A DNA stretch of 64,000 nt, from NCBI GenBank assembly GCA_022826665.1, contig JAJDUK010000047.1:137442-201441 (forward strand), in the 5' to 3' direction. Below the pieces are notes generated by a model, which had not been told where the DNA came from, did no database searches, and was given only the letters and a program-made list of their open reading frames with translations. The position numbers and the translations under genes were made by a program. Of the stretch, positions 28,846-37,271 are shown in pieces. Position 1 is the stretch's first letter, and every line of letters starts with the position of its first letter. This DNA is from Alphaproteobacteria bacterium (GTDB lineage: Bacteria > Pseudomonadota > Alphaproteobacteria > UBA828).

Positions 28846-29733
28846 GTGACCTGGTTGTTCTTCATCGACGAGAGCGGACATGACCACAGAGCCACGCCTT
28901 ATGAGGTTCGTGGCGGGCTTGCGATTCATGTCGGTCGATTGTGGCCGTTTGTGCAGGACATGCAGCGACTGGAAATCGATTGTTTCGGTTGCGAGCTGCA
29001 CACGTATGGCAAGGAGATCAAGGGCGCGACGCTGATCGATCGAAAGCGCTTCAGGCTCCCAGTACAGGGCGAGCCCTACCGCGATGACACCAGGCAGAGG
29101 CTCTGCTTATCTTTTCTTGCGAAGGGCCGCGAACGCGCCGTGCCGCGCCGGGAAGAATTCACGGCCTACGGCCAAGCCTGCCTTCGTATGGCACGAGAGA
29201 CGTTCGCTCTTCTACGGAAGCATGAAGCCATCGTATTGGCGTCTGTCATCCCGCGAGGCGTAGCGAAGCCCCGGGGCTACCTGTTCGACAGATATCTCAG
29301 AAAGGACCTGGTGTTTCTACTGGAGAGATATTTCTACTTCTTGGAAGAAGCACGGGAGTACGGCGTCTTGGTCATGGATGAGACCGACAAACAGGAAGAC
29401 CGCAGGTTTGTTGCCCGCATGGAGGGTCATTTCACCAACACATCGATCGGACGACGCAGGACGGCCTGGATCGTGCCTACACCGTTCTTCGTGTCATCCG
29501 ATATGAATCCAGCGATCCAGGCGGCGGACCTTTGCATCTATTCCATCAACTGGGGATTTCGATTGCCCGATCGAGGGATGAACGCAGAGTGTCGGGAGGA
29601 GATCGCCGCAATGTTTGGAAAAGAGCTGTTCGATCTCCAGTTTCACGGTCGCGGACATCGTGACGGTCGTGACTTCGATACCTATGGGATCGTCTACGTC
29701 CCCGACCCCTATGAATCCAGGGCGACCAAATGA
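28846..29733 (+). CDS. DUF3800-family protein (RNase H-like acidic motifs)
   Basis: N-terminal FIDESG, internal MDE, C-terminal IQAADL; visibly more AT-rich than neighbours. Confidence 0.8.
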   Translation: MTWLFFIDESGHDHRATPYEVRGGLAIHVGRLWPFVQDMQRLEIDCFGCELHTYGKEIKGATLIDRKRFRLPVQGEPYRDDTRQRLCLSFLAKGRERAVPRREEFTAYGQACLRMARETFALLRKHEAIVLASVIPRGVAKPRGYLFDRYLRKDLVFLLERYFYFLEEAREYGVLVMDETDKQEDRRFVARMEGHFTNTSIGRRRTAWIVPTPFFVSSDMNPAIQAADLCIYSINWGFRLPDRGMNAECREEIAAMFGKELFDLQFHGRGHRDGRDFDTYGIVYVPDPYESRATK

Positions 29734-29905: not shown

Positions 29906-30925
29906 CTAACGGAAGTGCGGAATCACGTGGTCGGCGTAGGCGGCGACGATCTGCTCCTCGCCGCCGTTGGTAAGGTAGATGTTGAACTGGGTGACGCCGG
30001 CGGCCTCCAGCGCGCGGATCTTCTCCACATGGGCCTCGGCCGGGCCGATCACGCAGAAGTCCTCGGTGATCTCCGGCGAGACATAGGCACTGTTGTCTGA
30101 CTCCAGTGCGGTGTGCTGGCGGTAGTCGTAGCCCTCGTCGGCGCCGACGCCCTCGCGCTGCGCGATGTAAGCGGTGAGGCTCTCAGGCACGAGGTCGGTG
30201 CCCGCGCCGTGGTGCTTCACGATGTCGGCCACGTGGTTGCCCACCAGCGCCGGGAACCACTTGGTCTGGGCGATCCCGGCCTCGCGGTCGCCGACCCAGA
30301 CCGGTGCGCAGGCCATGACGCGGTAGTCCGCCATGTCGCGGCCTTCAGCGCGGCCGGCGGCGCGGGCCTGGTCCCCCATCCACTGACAGAGGCCGACATC
30401 GCCGAGCTGCACGATCAGCCCGTCGCCGACGCGGCCGGCCGCCGCCAGTGCACGCGGCCCGTAGGCTGCAACCCAGACAGGCATCTCGTAGCCGCCGGTC
30501 CAGTCGAACTGTACCGGCTCCGGCACGCCCTCGTAGCTGACCGCCTCGCCCCGCACCAGCGCCTTCATGGCGTGGCAGAACTCCTCCAGGCGCGCCACCG
30601 TCGCCGGCCGCTTGCCGATGGCCCGCACGGCACTGTCGCCGCGCCCCACGCCCATGTCGAAGCGGCCGTCTGATTGCACCGCCATCGCCCCGAACAGGCT
30701 CGCAGCCACCGACCATTCGCGGGTCATCGGATTGGTGACGCAGGGACCAAAGCGCAGCCGCTGTGTGTGGTCGATGGCGACCGCCATCTGTGGGTAAAGG
30801 TCGCGCCACAGCGCGTGGCTGTCGAAGAACCAGGCATAGTCGAAGCCTGCCGCCTCGGCCTGGCGGCAGATGGCGACGACGCGATCCTTCTCAAGGTCGC
30901 CGCGAAAGGTGATGGCGAATTCCAT
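29906..30925 (-). CDS. LLM-class, probably F420-dependent, oxidoreductase
   Basis: AWFFDSH, GPCVTNP, GVGRGDSA, AAYGP; directly downstream of npdG. Confidence 0.85.
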   Translation of the reverse strand: MEFAITFRGDLEKDRVVAICRQAEAAGFDYAWFFDSHALWRDLYPQMAVAIDHTQRLRFGPCVTNPMTREWSVAASLFGAMAVQSDGRFDMGVGRGDSAVRAIGKRPATVARLEEFCHAMKALVRGEAVSYEGVPEPVQFDWTGGYEMPVWVAAYGPRALAAAGRVGDGLIVQLGDVGLCQWMGDQARAAGRAEGRDMADYRVMACAPVWVGDREAGIAQTKWFPALVGNHVADIVKHHGAGTDLVPESLTAYIAQREGVGADEGYDYRQHTALESDNSAYVSPEITEDFCVIGPAEAHVEKIRALEAAGVTQFNIYLTNGGEEQIVAAYADHVIPHFR

Positions 30926-30941
30926 GGTCGCCTCCGCTCCG

Positions 30942-31610
30942 TTACTCGGCCTCCGGCCAGATTTTCACGCCTGCATGCTTGAAGCCCGTCGCCTTCGACA
31001 TATTGAGGCGGATCAGCAGCGGTGTCAGCGCCTCAATGCAGCGCGCGCTCTCGGCCGGGCCGCAGTTGTAGGCGCGGGCACCGATGGTCTCGACCAGGTC
31101 CATCACCGCGCGCTTCGCCTCCAGGTCGTCGCCGCAGACGAGAATGTCGCAATTGATCGGCTGATCAAGGGCTGCAAGCACGTGGGCGGAGACGTTGTGG
31201 AGCGCTCCCACTACCGAGACGCCTTCGCCCAGCATCGCCTGCGCCGCCTCGGTCGCCGAGCCCTCCGGCGGCATCGCGGTGCGCCGGGGATTGCCGTCGG
31301 CGAGCGGCACCGCCATGTCCACCAGGATCTTGCCCTGCAGTGCCTCGGTAAGCCCCGCGAGGGTCGCCTGGTGCGCGCTCCACGGCACAGCCAGCACGAC
31401 CATGCGCTCGGCCCGCGTGACCGCGTCGGCGTTGGCGGCGCCTTCGATCGACCCCGGTGCATCAGGCACACCGGCTCTCAGATCGACGGCGATCTCCGCC
31501 GCGCGGGCGGCATCGCGCGACCCGACCACGACGTCAATGCCGGCAAGCGCGCAGCGCTGCGTTAGCCCGCGACCCTGGGGGCCGGTGCCTCCGATCACGG
31601 CGATTGCCAT
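30942..31610 (-). CDS. npdG: NADPH-dependent F420 reductase
   Basis: [35 protein letters not shown]. Confidence 0.88.
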
Positions 31611-31642: not shown

Positions 31643-32167
31643 CTACGCGTCGTAGGCGACGAGAGAGGTGATCGGCAGGTCGAGGCGTTGACGCCCGCCG
31701 AGGAAGCTCAGCTCAATGATGAAGGCCGCCGCCACCACCTCGGCACCCACTTGGCGCAGCAGAGCATGCGACGCGGCCGCCGTGCCCCCGGTTGCAAGCA
31801 AATCATCGACCAGGACAACCCGCTGACCCGGCGCGACGGCGTCGGCCTGCACCTCGACCTGATCGGTGCCGTACTCGAGCGCGTATTCATACGCCACGGT
31901 CTCGCCCGGCAGCTTGCCCTTCTTGCGTACCATGATGAAGCCACAGCCGAGTGCGTGCGCCACCGGCGCCGCGACCAGAAAGCCGCGGGATTCGATGCCT
32001 GCGAGGAGATCGGGCTTGTGACTGCCGACCACATCGACGAGACGCTGCACCGTCTCGCCCCAGGCCCGCGCGTGGGCGAGCAGGGTCGAGATGTCGTAAA
32101 AGAGGATGCCTGGCTTGGGAAAGTCAGGAATTTCGCGGATGTGGTCGCGCAGGTCGAAGGCGGACAT
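31643..32167 (-). CDS. apt: Adenine phosphoribosyltransferase
   Basis: [37 protein letters not shown]. Confidence 0.96.
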
Positions 32168-32208
32168 GGCTGCCCCCAATCAGCGCAAGAGGCCTTTGTC
32201 CTCCGCGA

Positions 32209-32598
32209 TCACTCGGCGCCGGTGGCTTCCTTGAGATAGGCGATCAGGTTGTCGCGGTCCTTTTCCTTCCTGACCCCCTTGAACGCCATCTTGTTCTTCG
32301 GAATGTAACCCTTGGGATCGGCAATATAGGCTCTGATCGTCTCCTCGTCCCAGACGATTGCCGCGTCCTTCATCGCGTCCGAGTATTTCTTGAAGCCCTC
32401 GGCCGTGCCCGAGGTGCGACCGAAGACGCCGTGGAGGTTCGGGCCGACCTTGTGTTTCCCGCCTTCCTTGACGGTGTGGCACACCTTGCACTTCTTGAAG
32501 ACCTTCTTGCCCTTCTTAACATCGGCGGCAATGGCGGAGGCGCTTGCCGCCATCATGAAGGTGGCGAGGGCAACGGCGAGGACGTGTCGTACGCGCAC
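32209..32598 (-). CDS. Class I cytochrome c (cytochrome c2-like)
   Basis: Signal peptide, [17 protein letters not shown] axial Met; AAGGAG RBS before GTG at 32598. Confidence 0.93.
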
Positions 32599-32730
32599 GG
32601 GTATCTCCTTAGGTCTGGTCCCGATCATGCGGTGAACGCGCGAACATAAGCCGGGTCCGCACCCGCGATCAAGCAGGCCATGCAGCCGGTGGCGCGCTGT
32701 TCCGGGGAGTAGCGCGCCACTAGCAGGTGG

Positions 32731-34014
32731 CTACTGGACCCGATACTCCTCGTCGAGGAAGAAGCGGCTGTCATAGTCCTCGACGCCAAGGTGGCACTCC
32801 GCGCAGAAGACGACGTTCTTGGCGCCCTTGCCGCCGGTCGTGCCGATGGTCCGGCCGCTCGGCATGATCAGCGTGTAGCGCCAGTCGCCGGTATCAGCGT
32901 TGAAGCCGGCTTCCATCTTCTCCATCAGGAAGAGTGGCCCGGCGCCGATCTTGCCGTTGGGTTTGACGGTGAAGCTGTCCTTGGCCAGCACGGTTCCGAC
33001 GGGCGCAGGCCCCGCCTCTTCGAAGAGGCTGTAATTGTCGGCGCCGATGTCGTTGGCGTAGTTGTTGACGTAGCGCGCGCCGTGGGTATCGGAGACGTAA
33101 GGCTGGGCCGCGACATTCCGCCAGTTCAGGTAGGACGCCGCCCACTGATTGCCCGACTTGGCGTATCCCTCGGCCATGACCGCACTGATGCAGGCGTAGG
33201 CGTCTCGGGCCTCGTCCGCGGTCAGCTCGACCTCTTCGCCGGCCGCGCAGGGGTTGCATGGATTGCAGGCGCCGCACGGTGCGCAGGGATTGCACGGACC
33301 ACATGGATTGCACGGGTTACAGGGGCTGCACGGGTTCGCCGCTGCACATGGGTTGCAAGGACCGCACGGGTTGCACGGTGCGCAGGCAGCGGCGCATGGA
33401 TTGCACGGCTCGCACGGGCTGCAGGGACCGCATGGGTTGCATGCTGTGGCGCAAGGGTTGCAAGGCCCACAGGGATTGCAAGCACTCGCGCAGGGATTGC
33501 ATGGACCGCACGGAGCACATGGCCCGCAGGGGCTGCCGGCGGCAGCGAGGCGCGGAACCACGCAGTCCGAACTGATCGCAGCGCCTGCTACGCACGGGTT
33601 GCAGGCGCCGCACGGCCCGCAGGCGCCCGCACAGGGATTGCAAGGGTTGCACGGTCCGCAAGGGCCGCAGGCGCCCGCACAGGGGTTACAGGGGTTGCAT
33701 GCAGCTGCGCAGGGGTTGCACGGATCACATGGATTACACGGTCCGCAAGCACCACAAGCGGCGGCACAGGGGTTGCAGGGATTGCACGGCCCGCAAGGTC
33801 CGCAGGCGGCCGCGCACGGGTTGCACGGACTGCACGGTCCGCACGGATTGCAGGAGGCCAAGAGCAGCACGCCCGGATCCTGATGCTGCGGGGTCGCCGC
33901 CGGGCTTTCGCCGGTGGATGTACCGGCCGTGGCGTGGCCGCCACTGGTGGCGACCGCGAGCCCGATGACCACAGGGACCACTGTTCCGGCAAGCAAGGTG
34001 TTCGAGCGTGGCAT
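32731..34014 (-). CDS. Secreted cytochrome P460-family protein with N-terminal (Cys-X-Pro)n repeat region
   Basis: GGGAGG RBS, hydrophobic leader, 202-aa Cys-rich region, then [29 protein letters not shown] and C-terminal CAECH. Confidence 0.82.
33247..33852 (-). repeat. Coding 9-bp-period repeat encoding (C-N/G/S/A/D/E-P)n
   Basis: 59 Cys in 202 codons by hand count; two blocks separated by [19 protein letters not shown]. Confidence 0.95.
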
Positions 34015-34146
34015 GTCGGGCCTCCCTTGATGGCGTGATGACGGCACTCTGAGCGAATTGTCGGCGAGCGCATGGTGCGGGGCAAACCCCTTCGACTCAA
34101 ATTTTTGTGATTCCCGTGCCGGGTGAGCGGCAGCTAGGCTGCTGCA

Positions 34147-35022
34147 ATGGTTTTCTCCCGCGCACTCCTTGCGGTCTGTCTCGCGACCTGCGGCCTGGTC
34201 CTCGGGGGCGCTTCATATGCTGGTTCGGTGCCAGTTCCAGTCCTGGCGGAGGTCCCGACCGGCCCCTTCATCGCGGGCTCCGACGCGGCCGAGCGGGAAT
34301 ACGCCTACCAGCTCGACGAGGCGGCCTACGGCCACTCCCGAACGCGGGAACGCGGCTGGTACGACCGCGAGCGCCCGCGCGGGACCAAGACCCTTGATGG
34401 CTTTTTCATCACGCGCACGCTGATCACCAATGCCCAGTACGCGGCTTTCGTGGATGCCACGGGCCACCGCGTGCCCGATGTCGATCCCGAGACCTGGCGC
34501 GGCTACCGGCTGATCCACCCCTACGAGCGCACCCGCCGCCACGCGTGGACGGAGGGAGTTCCGCCGCCTGGGCGCGAAAACCATCCCGTGGTCATGGTCT
34601 CGCACGACGACGCCAATGCCTACGCGGCCTGGCTCTCGGCCGAGACCGGGCGCACCTGGCGGCTCCCCACCGAGCTCGAATGGGAGAAGGCCGCGCGCGG
34701 CACAGACGGCCGCATCTTCCCCTGGGGCGATACGTTCGACCCGGCGCTGCTCAACAGCCATGATTCCGGTCCCTTCGACACGCTGCCGGTCGGCAGCTTT
34801 CGCGCCGGTGCAAGCCCTTACGGCCTGCTGGATCCGGCAGGCATGGCCTTTGAGTGGACCGCCTCGCCCGGCAATCCGGGGCGCTTCCTCGTCAAGGGCG
34901 GATCATGGGACGACAGCGGCTGCGGCATCTGCCGCCCTGCGGCGCGTCACGGTCGGCCGGCGGACATCAAGCACATCCTCGTCGGCTTCCGCCTCGTCGT
35001 CGATCCGGGCGCGGGGGGTTAG
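34147..35022 (+). CDS. Secreted FGE-sulfatase/SUMF1-fold protein
   Basis: Signal peptide; [41 protein letters not shown]. Confidence 0.88.
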
Positions 35023-35104
35023 CCTCCTCGGTCTGGCAAGAGCAAGCCCGCGGCACTATCTTTTCCTGGCGGAACGGCCAGCGAACGGGCGACAGAGCGG
35101 CAGA

Positions 35105-35866
35105 ATGGCCCAGGCTTCAGCGGCGAAGAGCGAGCGGCAGGAGGAGACCCGCCACCTCGACATGGCGACACAGCCGGTGAAGCGGCTGCGCATGATGCTC
35201 GCCGCCGGCGAGGAGGTGCAGGAGGTCGAGCGGGTGCTCGGCAGGACCGGCGATAATGTGGTGAGCGAGCTGCTGCGCGGGCGCGGGACGTTCTACGAGT
35301 GGGACCATTACCCGAAAGGGGACGTCTTCGACGGTCAGAGCCACTCCCAGTATTTCTACCACGCCCATCCCGGCGGCTTCCGGGACACCGAGCACGGCCA
35401 CTTCCACACCTTCGTGCGCGCCAAAGGGATGCCGCGCGGCATGAAGCCCATGCGCCGCAAGAAGCGCGACAAGTGGCCCATGGGGGACAAAGCGCTCACC
35501 CACGTCGTCGCCATCTCGATGGGGTCGAAGGGTCAGCCTCTCAGGCTTTTCACCACCAACCGCTGGGTCACTGGCGAGACCTGGTATCGAGCCGATGACG
35601 TGGCAAAGGTGATCGGCCGCTTCGTCATCGACCACGCCCGCCCGTCATGGCCGACCAACCGCTGGGTCGGCGCCATGATCCGCCTCTTCTGGCCGCAGAT
35701 CATCCTGCTGGTCAAGGCGCGTGATCAGGTGATCGAGAACTGGGCTGCCCAGAATCCGAAGAAAGATACCCTCGAGGATCGTCGCCTCGAGGTCGTCTCG
35801 CAGGCCGAGGTGGATATCGAGGCCCAGATTGCCGCTATCAAGGCGGCCCTTGCCGAGAGAACCTAA
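35105..35866 (+). CDS. His-rich hypothetical protein, DUF6969-like
   Basis: WDHYPKGDVFD, SQYFYHAH, EHGHFHTF, THVVAISM, LFTTNRWVTGETW; family name from memory; start 35105 or 35162. Confidence 0.65.
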   Translation: MAQASAAKSERQEETRHLDMATQPVKRLRMMLAAGEEVQEVERVLGRTGDNVVSELLRGRGTFYEWDHYPKGDVFDGQSHSQYFYHAHPGGFRDTEHGHFHTFVRAKGMPRGMKPMRRKKRDKWPMGDKALTHVVAISMGSKGQPLRLFTTNRWVTGETWYRADDVAKVIGRFVIDHARPSWPTNRWVGAMIRLFWPQIILLVKARDQVIENWAAQNPKKDTLEDRRLEVVSQAEVDIEAQIAAIKAALAERT

Positions 35867-35914
35867 GGCGCAGCCGACCCCCCGCTGTCACGGCTCCCGT
35901 ACCGCGATAAAGAA

Positions 35915-35936
35915 CGCCGCCTCTCCCGAGGCGGCG
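35915..35936 (-). terminator. Intrinsic terminator of the small Cys-repeat gene (possibly bidirectional)
   Basis: CGCCGCCTC-TCCC-GAGGCGGCG 9-bp stem followed on the minus strand by TTCTTT. Confidence 0.75.
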
Positions 35937-35967
35937 CCTTTGGATAATGTTGTCGTTACCCTTGAGC

Positions 35968-36324
35968 TTACTCGGCAGCACACGGGTTGCAAGCCTCGCA
36001 CGGATTGCAAGCCTCGCAAGGGTTGCAGGCATCCGCCACGACGATGCGCTCGTCCAAGGAAGACTCGCACGGGTTGCAAGCCTCGCACGGATTGCAAGCC
36101 TCGCAAGGGTTGCAGGCATCCGCGACGACGATGCCCTCATCCAAGGAAGATTCGCATGGGTTGCAAGCCTCGCACGGGTTACAAGCCCCGCACGGGTTGC
36201 ACGGATCCTCGTGCGAGTCCGCAACGACGATCGGCTGCTCCCCAGCGGACACGGCCGACGGCGCAAGAGCGGCGCCGGCCGCCATGGTAACGATACTCAC
36301 GGCGACCACTGTTTCCTTGATCAT
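35968..36324 (-). CDS. Small secreted protein with three Cys-rich CNPC cassettes
   Basis: GGAGGA RBS, ATG at 36324, Sec-type signal (…PSAVSA), 18 Cys in three cassettes, own terminator. Confidence 0.85.
35980..36231 (-). repeat. 87-bp tandem repeat (about 3 copies) containing an 18-bp sub-repeat
   Basis: Units start at 35981, 36068 and 36155; unit encodes [28 protein letters not shown](G/R). Confidence 0.95.
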
Positions 36325-36494
36325 TTTCGTAGTCTCCTCCTCGCAGACGCGAATTTGATTGGTTTGAATTGGGGCTTCGCGCCGCCTCGGCGGGTTGTCG
36401 AACCATACGAAGCCCACGCCATTGTGGTGTATATCGGCGGCGAGCAAAAGTGCTTTCGTTTCGATGACGGGAATGTGAGCGACGGGGACGGCCG

Positions 36495-37271
36495 ATGCCG
36501 GTCGCGAGCAGCGAAGATTACGCGAGGCTGGCTGCCACCGCGCGGCAATTGGCGCTGGAGGCCGGGCGGACGATCATGGCCTTCTACCGCGACGGCACGC
36601 CGGTCGAGACGAAGGCCGATTCCACACCCGTGACCGAGGCGGACCGGGCGGCGGATCGCCTCATCGTCGCGGGCTTGCAGGCCGCGACTCCCGACATCCC
36701 CGTGATTTCCGAGGAGAGCACAAGCACCGGCCTGCCACCCGCCGGCGGGCGCTTCTGGCTCGTCGATCCGCTTGATGGTACCAGAGACTTCATCGCTCGC
36801 ACCGGCGAGTTCACGATCAACATCGCTTTGATCGAAGGTGGCCGTCCGGTGCTCGGCGTGCTCCACGCCCCGGTCCAGGATGAGACCTATGTCGCCGACG
36901 GACTGGGGCAGGCGGTGCGCATGGTAGGCGACGGCCCGCCGCAGGCGATCCGGGCGCGTCCGGTGCCTGCCAGGGGCCCTGCGGTCATCGCCAGCCGCCT
37001 ACACCGTGACGCCGAGACCGACGCCTATATCGCGGGACTCGAACCTGCGCGGATCGAGAGCGCGGGGAGCGCCCTGAAATTCGGGCTGCTCGCGCGGGGC
37101 GCGGCCGATGTGTACCCCCGCTTTGGCCGCACCATGGAGTGGGACACCGCCGCCGGCCAGGCGATCCTCACGGCGGCGGGAGGTCATGTCCGCGACCTGC
37201 AGGGCCATGAGCTGCGCTATGGCAAGGCGGACTTCGTGAATCCATCCTTCGTCGCCTGCGGCGTGGATTAG
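36495..37271 (+). CDS. cysQ: 3'(2'),5'-bisphosphate nucleotidase
   Basis: [42 protein letters not shown]. Confidence 0.93.

Follow-up and report, generated by a model that had tools for sequence, protein, structure and literature searches.

The bacterial metallothioneins SmtA/BmtA and MymT are small cytoplasmic proteins that are very rich in Cys, with CxxC spacing. In periplasmic thiosulfate oxidation, the SoxYZ carrier brings sulfur species to the SoxAX cytochrome by means of a Cys residue on a flexible arm. The characterised P460 proteins are not known to carry arms composed of Cys repeats. The precursors of the bufferins have Sec signal peptides and are modified at Cys residues in the cytoplasm (PMC11626156), and the Buf_EGKCG/oxazolin precursors contain Cys repeats that are variable in number (PMC12452194). 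The locus described here lies in a stretch of 64,000 nucleotides, called the window below, from an alphaproteobacterium of the lineage UBA828 (GCA_022826665.1, contig JAJDUK010000047.1, positions 137,442 to 201,441), and it encodes a small Cys-repeat protein of 118 residues that is probably exported. Judged by its genomic context, the small protein is part of a module whose other members are a DUF6969 protein, a P460 protein that bears Cys-repeat arms, a cytochrome c, and an FGE-like protein that is exported and has a CxxC motif. The reading that we favour, tentatively, is that of an uncleaved periplasmic multi-thiol arm protein, which would carry or buffer a thiophilic ligand or redox equivalents.

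The Cys-repeat gene and its product

The coding sequence is located at 35968–36324 on the minus strand, stop codon included, and is defined by its translation, its substitution bias and its relatives. Residues 1–27 (36244–36324, minus strand) are predicted from sequence features and hydropathy to form a Sec-type signal peptide, composed of K3, a hydrophobic core at residues 5–21, P22 and the residues VSA ahead of the predicted cut. This segment is near-invariant in the alignment of relatives. Removal of the peptide at the putative cleavage site would leave a mature chain of 91 residues with 18 Cys, 18 acidic residues (D+E) and one basic residue (K+R), and Cys makes up 20% of this chain in the form of repeated CxxC units. 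The mature portion contains three cassettes of the form IVVAD-(CNPCxA), each with six Cys. The first cassette (residues 32–57; 36154–36231, minus strand) is delimited by translation, while the second (residues 65–86; 36067–36132, minus strand) and the third (residues 94–115; 35980–36045, minus strand) are delimited by translation together with an 87-bp tandem unit and are preceded by the linkers ESSLDEG and ESSLDER respectively. The 18 Cys are found within residues 42–57, 71–86 and 100–115 with a spacing of three residues throughout each cassette, and the protein ends in AAE after the third cassette. The preliminary description of this locus had listed a signal peptide followed by three six-Cys cassettes, each preceded by IVVAD and separated by ESSLDE(G/R), and had called the product exported, very Cys-rich and acidic; the translation agrees exactly with this layout, and the predicted signal peptide and the composition of the mature chain bear out the rest. 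At the mature N-terminus, residues 28–36 (36210–36231, minus strand) read GEQPIVVAD and the relatives have GDTPIVVAD or TDTPLVVAD, a segment that we take to resemble a TonB box (acidic-T-x-V-V-x-A) placed as in TonB-dependent receptors.

The frame is a real gene under purifying selection and not a shadow frame, because the changes are concentrated at third codon positions, synonymous changes are in excess and 51 related proteins exist. Over the first 36 codons, compared with 25 relatives, substitutions at codon positions 1, 2 and 3 number 82, 34 and 297, with 224 synonymous and 105 non-synonymous changes. The long opposite-strand open reading frames (ORFs) that cover the gene are shadows, as the substitution pattern identifies the minus-strand frame as the coding one. 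Metatranscriptome contigs of relatives, 90–99% identical and derived from four RNA runs, span the 5' half of the gene and its leader; these are a weak hint of expression, as DNA carry-over is possible.

Arms shared with haem proteins

At lower window coordinates and also on the minus strand, 32731–34017 encodes an exported P460-family haem protein with two CxPC/NPC arms, assigned by translation, PF16694, PDB entry 7s5o and BLASTP. The protein has the hydrophobic stretch VLLLAS at its start, contains two long arms split by the conserved motif SSDCVVPRL, and ends in a P460-family domain with a CAECH motif. The domain matches PF16694 at 30.6 bits (cut-off 27) and 7s5o with an E-value of 2e-4. The arms hold about 70 cysteines, and this is the sole PF16694 match in the genome. 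BLASTP aligns the small protein with this P460 fusion at 4e-16, and the linker between the cassettes aligns with the segment between the two arms. In one relative (P0021), the N-terminus of the small protein runs directly into a P460 domain. Among the longer relatives, 12 of 20 contain PF16694 and three of 20 contain the SoxA-TsdA domain PF21342; a CxxCH motif is present in 35 of 50 longer relatives and in one of 92 small ones, and the inter-arm motif C-Phi-[VI]-P-[RK]-Phi in 14 of 50 and none of 92 respectively. Because of the BLASTP homology with the arms, the arrangement in P0021 and these haem-domain fusions, the small protein is a free copy of arms that elsewhere form permanent parts of haem enzymes.

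The gene for a class I cytochrome c (PF00034; 32209–32628, minus strand) follows the P460 fusion in the same orientation at a distance of 102 bp. The best NCBIfam match of this cytochrome is cytochrome c-550 CycA at 119 bits, which is under the cut-off of 240. The ORF at 31951–32649 on the plus strand (orf31951) is an antisense shadow over the true minus-strand genes, cytochrome c and apt, and the tblastn matches obtained with it as a query in the locus surveys actually report these two genes.

The Cys-repeat family

The 51 relatives come from a collection of 5.8 billion proteins, have lengths of 64–161 residues, and are all named only as hypothetical proteins. No Pfam or NCBIfam family matches the 118-residue protein. 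A family profile built on 28 members and used to search 1.84 billion proteins recovered 145 representatives at E <= 1e-3, of which 142 were used for repeat statistics. At least three Asn-Pro-Cys units are present in 130 of these 142. Half of the gaps between successive Cys are three residues and 21% are six, and multiples of three account for 1257 of 1573 gaps of up to 12 residues. The median length is 101 residues, with 95 representatives of at most 130 residues and 30 of at least 200. Conserved across the family are a signal peptide, periodically spaced Cys and, ahead of the first Cys block, a short hydrophobic Phi-x-Phi-A stretch, and the 118-residue protein has all three, with its Cys repeats at 3- or 6-residue spacing. 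The clade that includes the window is acidic, most other relatives are Lys-rich (for example, with NPCAAK units), and the fusion arms are neutral. The genome of the window encodes a second copy of 74 residues on contig 24.

A structural or inert role, in which the protein would be a spacer stapled by disulfides or a low-complexity chain devoid of specific chemistry, would suit the low-complexity sequence and the variation in repeat number and charge. It is very unlikely, since the rest of the sequence drifts around strictly conserved Cys residues and NPC units, the frame is under purifying selection, and the linkage to DUF6969 (below) is kept across more than 30 family codes.

Origin and number of the cassettes

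Tandem Repeats Finder identifies an 87-bp unit in the gene, present in 2.6 copies with 92% matches (score 379). The three cassettes are therefore the product of a recent tandem duplication of one 29-residue unit, and not of independent conservation of three units. At the orthologous site there are three cassettes in L004 and L005, two in L006, L007, L008 and L010, and one uninterrupted Cys block in others; a single block is found in 19 of 37 small relatives. The metatranscriptome contig of one relative is short by exactly 18 nucleotides, which is one CNPCxA unit, and the repeat number is fluid.

Under a strict pattern, 34 of 37 small relatives have the hydrophobic Phi-x-Phi-A stretch ahead of their first Cys block and the remaining three have near variants; the P460 fusions also carry a hydrophobic stretch before the arm. 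The IVVAD-containing linker ESSLDE-x-Phi-Phi-VADA is limited to seven close relatives, the window included, which have two or three cassettes. In L012, L026, L029 and L042, two blocks are joined by an acidic linker that has no hydrophobic motif. The suggestion that cassette number would vary among homologues is thus upheld, the syntenic site holding from one to three blocks. Before the later blocks, the motif is kept in the seven close relatives and lacking in the four just named.

The preliminary description had proposed a multi-core precursor of a ribosomally synthesised, post-translationally modified peptide (RiPP), from which the three cassettes would be excised at IVVA/D as hexa-Cys peptides of about 17–20 residues. 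The three cassettes are indeed near-identical with the same motif before each, and close relatives keep the motif across two or three cassettes. This layout is restricted to a single clade and of recent date, however, as it arose by the 87-bp duplication, and the hydrophobic element also stands before arms that remain permanently on haem proteins. A Pfam and NCBIfam search of the genes between 24306 and 46740 found no protease, cyclase, PCAT-type exporter, YcaO or MNIO within about 10 kb, so that the maturation machinery of such a pathway is absent from the neighbourhood. The search for MNIO (DUF692, PF05114) gave no match in the whole genome, which is 99.2% complete, and the control was positive in Caulobacter. 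Excision of the cassettes is accordingly the reading to which we give the least credence. The hydrophobic element before each arm, which had been rightly noted and is of general occurrence, may be read instead as a docking strand and not as a cleavage site.

Genomic association with DUF6969

The gene at 35075–35866 on the plus strand encodes a DUF6969 protein (PF22308, 281 bits) with no signal peptide. The small gene and the DUF6969 gene are arranged tail to tail, their stop codons 101 bp apart, and the stretches matched by the two profiles are 249 bp apart. The DUF6969 family comprises 5,607 sequence clusters, none of which is named. Its invariant residues include seven His (H78, H96, H98, H107, H109, H111 and H143) and several Asp and Glu. 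The AlphaFold model is confident (pLDDT 82, pTM 0.83). Compared with the PDB, it has no fold relative either by Foldseek, with a best E-value of 0.68, or by VIA-align over 48,161 chains, with a best Z of 3.5; the absence of a match in these comparisons does not prove that the predicted structure is a new fold.

The loci of relatives were surveyed by tblastn with the window neighbours as queries, and 42 were obtained, from 41 public genomes and the paralogue in the genome of the window. Across these loci, the neighbours include DUF6969 in 27, the FGE-like protein in 24, a P460 domain in 22 and CysQ in 27. Because this linkage might reflect shared ancestry, the class Alphaproteobacteria was sampled with 401 evenly drawn genomes. 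The family profile is positive in 45 of them, spanning over 30 family codes, and PF22308 in 90 (the unpublished G240 among them). DUF6969 is present in all 45 family-positive genomes, as compared with 45 of the 356 others. By profile coordinates, 25 of the 45 family-positive genomes have a repeat ORF no more than 10 kb from DUF6969, and in 21 the distance is at most 2.5 kb. The surroundings of DUF6969 were inspected for 16 of the remaining 20, and seven more (G097, G304, G059, G242, G300, G223 and G371) have a Cys-repeat gene within about 3 kb, which brings the linked total to 32 of 45. Same-strand, tightly spaced orders that resemble operons are found at L049, L051, L059 and L066.

Forty further DUF6969 loci are adjoined by the FGE-like gene in 14 cases, by a P460 fusion in 11 and by a poly-Cys ORF in 15. 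At eight of 23 loci from genomes with no profile match, a poly-Cys ORF stands beside DUF6969; some of these ORFs are of the (CGA)n/KCGAC types, and one is of a Cys-Gly-Ser-His type. At L070, L083, L096 and L100, KCGAC/(CGA)n arms replace NPC at the DUF6969 locus, with Cys still at every third residue. The Cys-Gly-Ser-His type is an exported peptide rich in these residues at the DUF6969 locus L068 (3690–4085, minus strand).

The association with DUF6969 bears on what we regard as the most interesting alternative, a RiPP-like pathway in which a cytoplasmic DUF6969 metalloenzyme would modify the Cys of the NPC units before Sec export, giving a modified metallophore or redox peptide, with cassette number merely setting the dose. 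The presence of DUF6969 in every family-positive genome, often adjacent or in the same operon, speaks for it, as do the invariant His, Asp and Glu, a cluster typical of metal sites, in a confidently modelled protein of no known fold. The conserved hydrophobic strand before the arms could act as a recognition element. There is published precedent (PMC11626156, PMC12452194) for the logic of such a pathway, not for its enzymes. On the other side, no RRE-type, MNIO, YcaO, radical-SAM peptide-maturase or protease gene is found in the neighbourhood, and the arms are also covalent parts of haem proteins of 300–480 residues. Half of the DUF6969-positive genomes (45 of 90) have no family match, and a poly-Cys ORF accompanies DUF6969 at only the eight of 23 such loci noted above. 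We also know of no catalytic activity of DUF6969. Modification ahead of export is possible and, on this balance, rather unlikely. It is likewise doubtful that DUF6969 founds a new class of cytoplasmic peptide-modifying metalloproteins acting on Sec-destined Cys-repeat proteins, both the small proteins and the P460/SoxA-like arms. If true, this would define a redox- or sulfur-carrying polymer of a new kind in the periplasm, its number of repeats evolving fast by tandem duplication.

The FGE-like protein and other module neighbours

The gene at 34147–35022 on the plus strand encodes an exported protein of the FGE-sulfatase family (PF03781, 151.8 bits) and ends 52 bp before the DUF6969 gene. Across many of the class's families, a gene of this subfamily stands immediately upstream of DUF6969. 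In 23 diverse orthologues the motif GGSWDDxGCGxCRxAARH is conserved, with the first Cys invariant and the second present in 22, and almost all of them have a signal-like N-terminus. The best solved relative is ToxD (7spq), and alignments to true FGEs end before the GCGxC motif. The Cys repeats have C-x-P, the first half of the sulfatase motif CxPxR, with no Arg, a resemblance that could be fortuitous.

CysQ was considered as a further functional partner and rejected, as it is beside 27 of the 42 related loci but none of 20 distant loci, a pattern of local synteny. The pyridoxal phosphate enzyme beside the paralogues is an ACC deaminase and not a cysteine synthase. In the set of 40 DUF6969 loci, the flanking Pfam families, counted by locus, are cytochrome c (11), DUF2336 (10), rhodanese (5), MBL-fold (4), universal stress proteins (3), the YeeE-type Sulf_transp family (2) and NrsF with an extracytoplasmic function (ECF) sigma factor (1). 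Control of the SigF type was not seen. The rhodanese genes are near DUF6969 at L070, L083, L086, L096 and L100. DUF2336 (PF10098) flanks DUF6969 at L065, L069, L077, L079, L084, L085, L088, L090, L094 and L101, and it was not found in the genome of the window.

A plain periplasmic buffer of the metallothionein type would hold Cu(I), Zn, Cd, Hg or As(III) on unmodified thiols, with the neighbouring genes unrelated or co-regulated. The high content of Cys in CxxC units and the export signal fit such a buffer, a promoter-like motif is common to the two paralogues only (below), and some DUF6969 loci have SCO1/SenC or NrsF with an ECF sigma factor (L091, L102). Against it, the surroundings of the small gene contain no exporter or sensor of metals and no known gene for metal resistance, and no metallothionein model matches the protein. 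Thiols in the oxidising periplasm would become disulfides unless they are kept reduced. The fusions to P460 and SoxA-TsdA domains, and the DUF6969, FGE-like and P460–cytochrome c partners, would also be left unexplained. We consider a buffer of this kind rather improbable.

Proposed role of the module

In the reading that we favour, the periplasmic multi-thiol arm, Sec export and removal of the signal peptide would yield an acidic chain of 91 residues that displays 18 thiols in three runs of i, i+3 spacing. The chain would be flexible, and its thiols would reversibly take up a thiophilic cargo in the periplasm. This cargo may be a soft metal, sulfane sulfur held in the form of persulfides, or simply oxidising equivalents held as disulfides. 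The haem protein and the cytochrome c would carry electrons. The short hydrophobic strand before each arm, which is IVVA in the small protein and VLLLA or CVVPRL in the fusion, would dock the arm onto its partner. DUF6969 would be the obligatory cytoplasmic partner.

Several observations weigh against this proposal. The charge of the family is not conserved, which would argue against one fixed binding geometry. The 74-residue paralogue and its relatives sit amid unrelated housekeeping genes, and, of the 13 family-positive genomes with no linked gene, nine that were inspected have none of the Cys-repeat type in the 3 kb around DUF6969 (G039, G100, G128, G264, G309, G191, G086, G165 and G164). 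The overlap of 45 of 45 genomes overstates the significance of the association, since related genomes are not independent, and it is given here as counts with no P value. DUF6969 has no signal peptide, by which a direct periplasmic role with the peptide is excluded, and its linkage could mean modification before export, which is the alternative reading given above. Sulfur-linked neighbours are a minority, with rhodanese at five of 40 loci, Sulf_transp at two of 40 and none in the window.

If the multi-thiol arm reading is true, many Alphaproteobacteria possess an undescribed envelope system in which poly-thiol arms are combined with a haem protein of the P460 or SoxA type, with an FGE-like protein and with DUF6969 in the cytoplasm. 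A role for DUF6969 would follow, as would a reason for the dozens of Cys on P460-family haem enzymes, and a new extracytoplasmic route for handling oxidants, soft metals or reactive sulfur could come to light. The genes are short, of low complexity and have no family model, so that automatic annotation calls them hypothetical proteins.

Control signals and the surrounding region

The small gene has its own ribosome-binding site and its own terminator-like structure, as had been noted from the first reading of the DNA. The ribosome-binding site GAGGAGGAG is located at 36334–36342 (minus strand), nine nucleotides ahead of the ATG, and is kept upstream of the orthologues. After the stop codon, RNA folding identifies a terminator-like hairpin with a U-rich tail at 35902–35941 (minus strand), in which a GC-rich stem of 9–11 bp is followed by UUCUUUAU. 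The 91-nucleotide region with this hairpin folds at z = -4.3, and none of 200 shuffles folds equally well. Consensus scans for sigma-70 promoters and for terminators found nothing at the small gene.

A motif of the form CTTTYG-N15-19-CCACAATG at 36420–36450 (minus strand) is conserved in relatives and would act as a promoter. We take it to resemble a sigma-32-type consensus. A pattern scan of the genome gives two matches, upstream of the 118-residue gene and of its 74-residue paralogue only, and the reversed control pattern gives none. Between the motif and the gene, a 5' leader stem formed by GGGCUUCG and CGAAGCCC (36372–36415, minus strand) is recognised by conserved pairing in 14 sequences, with 95% of cells paired. 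Its covariation is no higher than that of shuffles (187 of 500), and the stem is a putative functional element. The stem and the promoter-like motif also precede the 74-residue paralogue (L002, 1730–1850, minus strand) and occur nowhere else in the genome. An Rfam search of 35800–36600 returned only matches below threshold, namely malK-III (24 bits, threshold 50) and flg-Rhizobiales (21.5 bits, threshold 55).

The remaining genes between 24306 and 46740 are housekeeping genes, encoding MoaA, a glutamine synthetase-like protein, F420 enzymes, Apt, CysQ, TsaC, methyltransferases and others. At 29906–31610 (minus strand), an F420-dependent LLM oxidoreductase (TIGR03842) adjoins the NADPH-dependent F420 reductase NpdG, and this pair stays beside the module in close relatives. 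A DUF3800 gene (28846–29733, plus strand) has a third-position GC content of 0.67, compared with 0.81–0.93 in its neighbours, and may be foreign DNA.

Comparison with described systems

No paper was found on DUF6969, PF22308 or the repeat strings NPCAAK, CNPCNPC, CNPCEAC and PCNPCAA, in a search whose reach ends short of supplements and subscription journals. The family is unnamed and undescribed, and by the features compared it falls outside the cyanobactin-type precursors, the bufferins and the metallothioneins.

The cyanobactin-type (PatE-like) precursors share the layout of a repeated motif plus a core with the 118-residue protein. The leader here is a Sec signal, though, the cassettes were recently duplicated, and there are no PatA/PatG-type proteases and no heterocyclase. 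The bufferins and oxazolins are RiPP metallophores modified by MNIO enzymes, with conversion of Cys to 5-thiooxazole. They share the Sec signal peptide and the Cys-bearing core, whereas the genome of the window has no MNIO, the companion of the small gene is DUF6969, the repeat unit is NPC or CxxC, and no bufferin family model matches. In addition, no DUF2063 partner is seen near the small gene, and the string 'NPC' is absent from the MNIO landscape paper (PMC12452194).

The metallothioneins are similar in their high Cys content, CxxC spacing, small size and plausible capacity for soft metals. They differ in that the protein described here is predicted to be exported, is strictly periodic, is tied to haem proteins and DUF6969, and matches none of their families. 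The SoxYZ/SoxAX system offers a similar idea of a carrier with a Cys arm, and three of 20 longer relatives hold the SoxA-TsdA domain PF21342. Unlike SoxYZ, the protein has no SoxY fold and no GGCGG tail, it bears many Cys instead of one, and its partner haem is of the P460 type; the window contains no sox genes. Lastly, the cytochrome P460/cytochrome c'-beta family (PF16694, with 7s5o as the nearest solved chain) is matched by the C-terminal domain of the neighbouring protein, which keeps the CxxCH motif, while the small protein, itself with no haem domain, is homologous to the arms of that neighbour.

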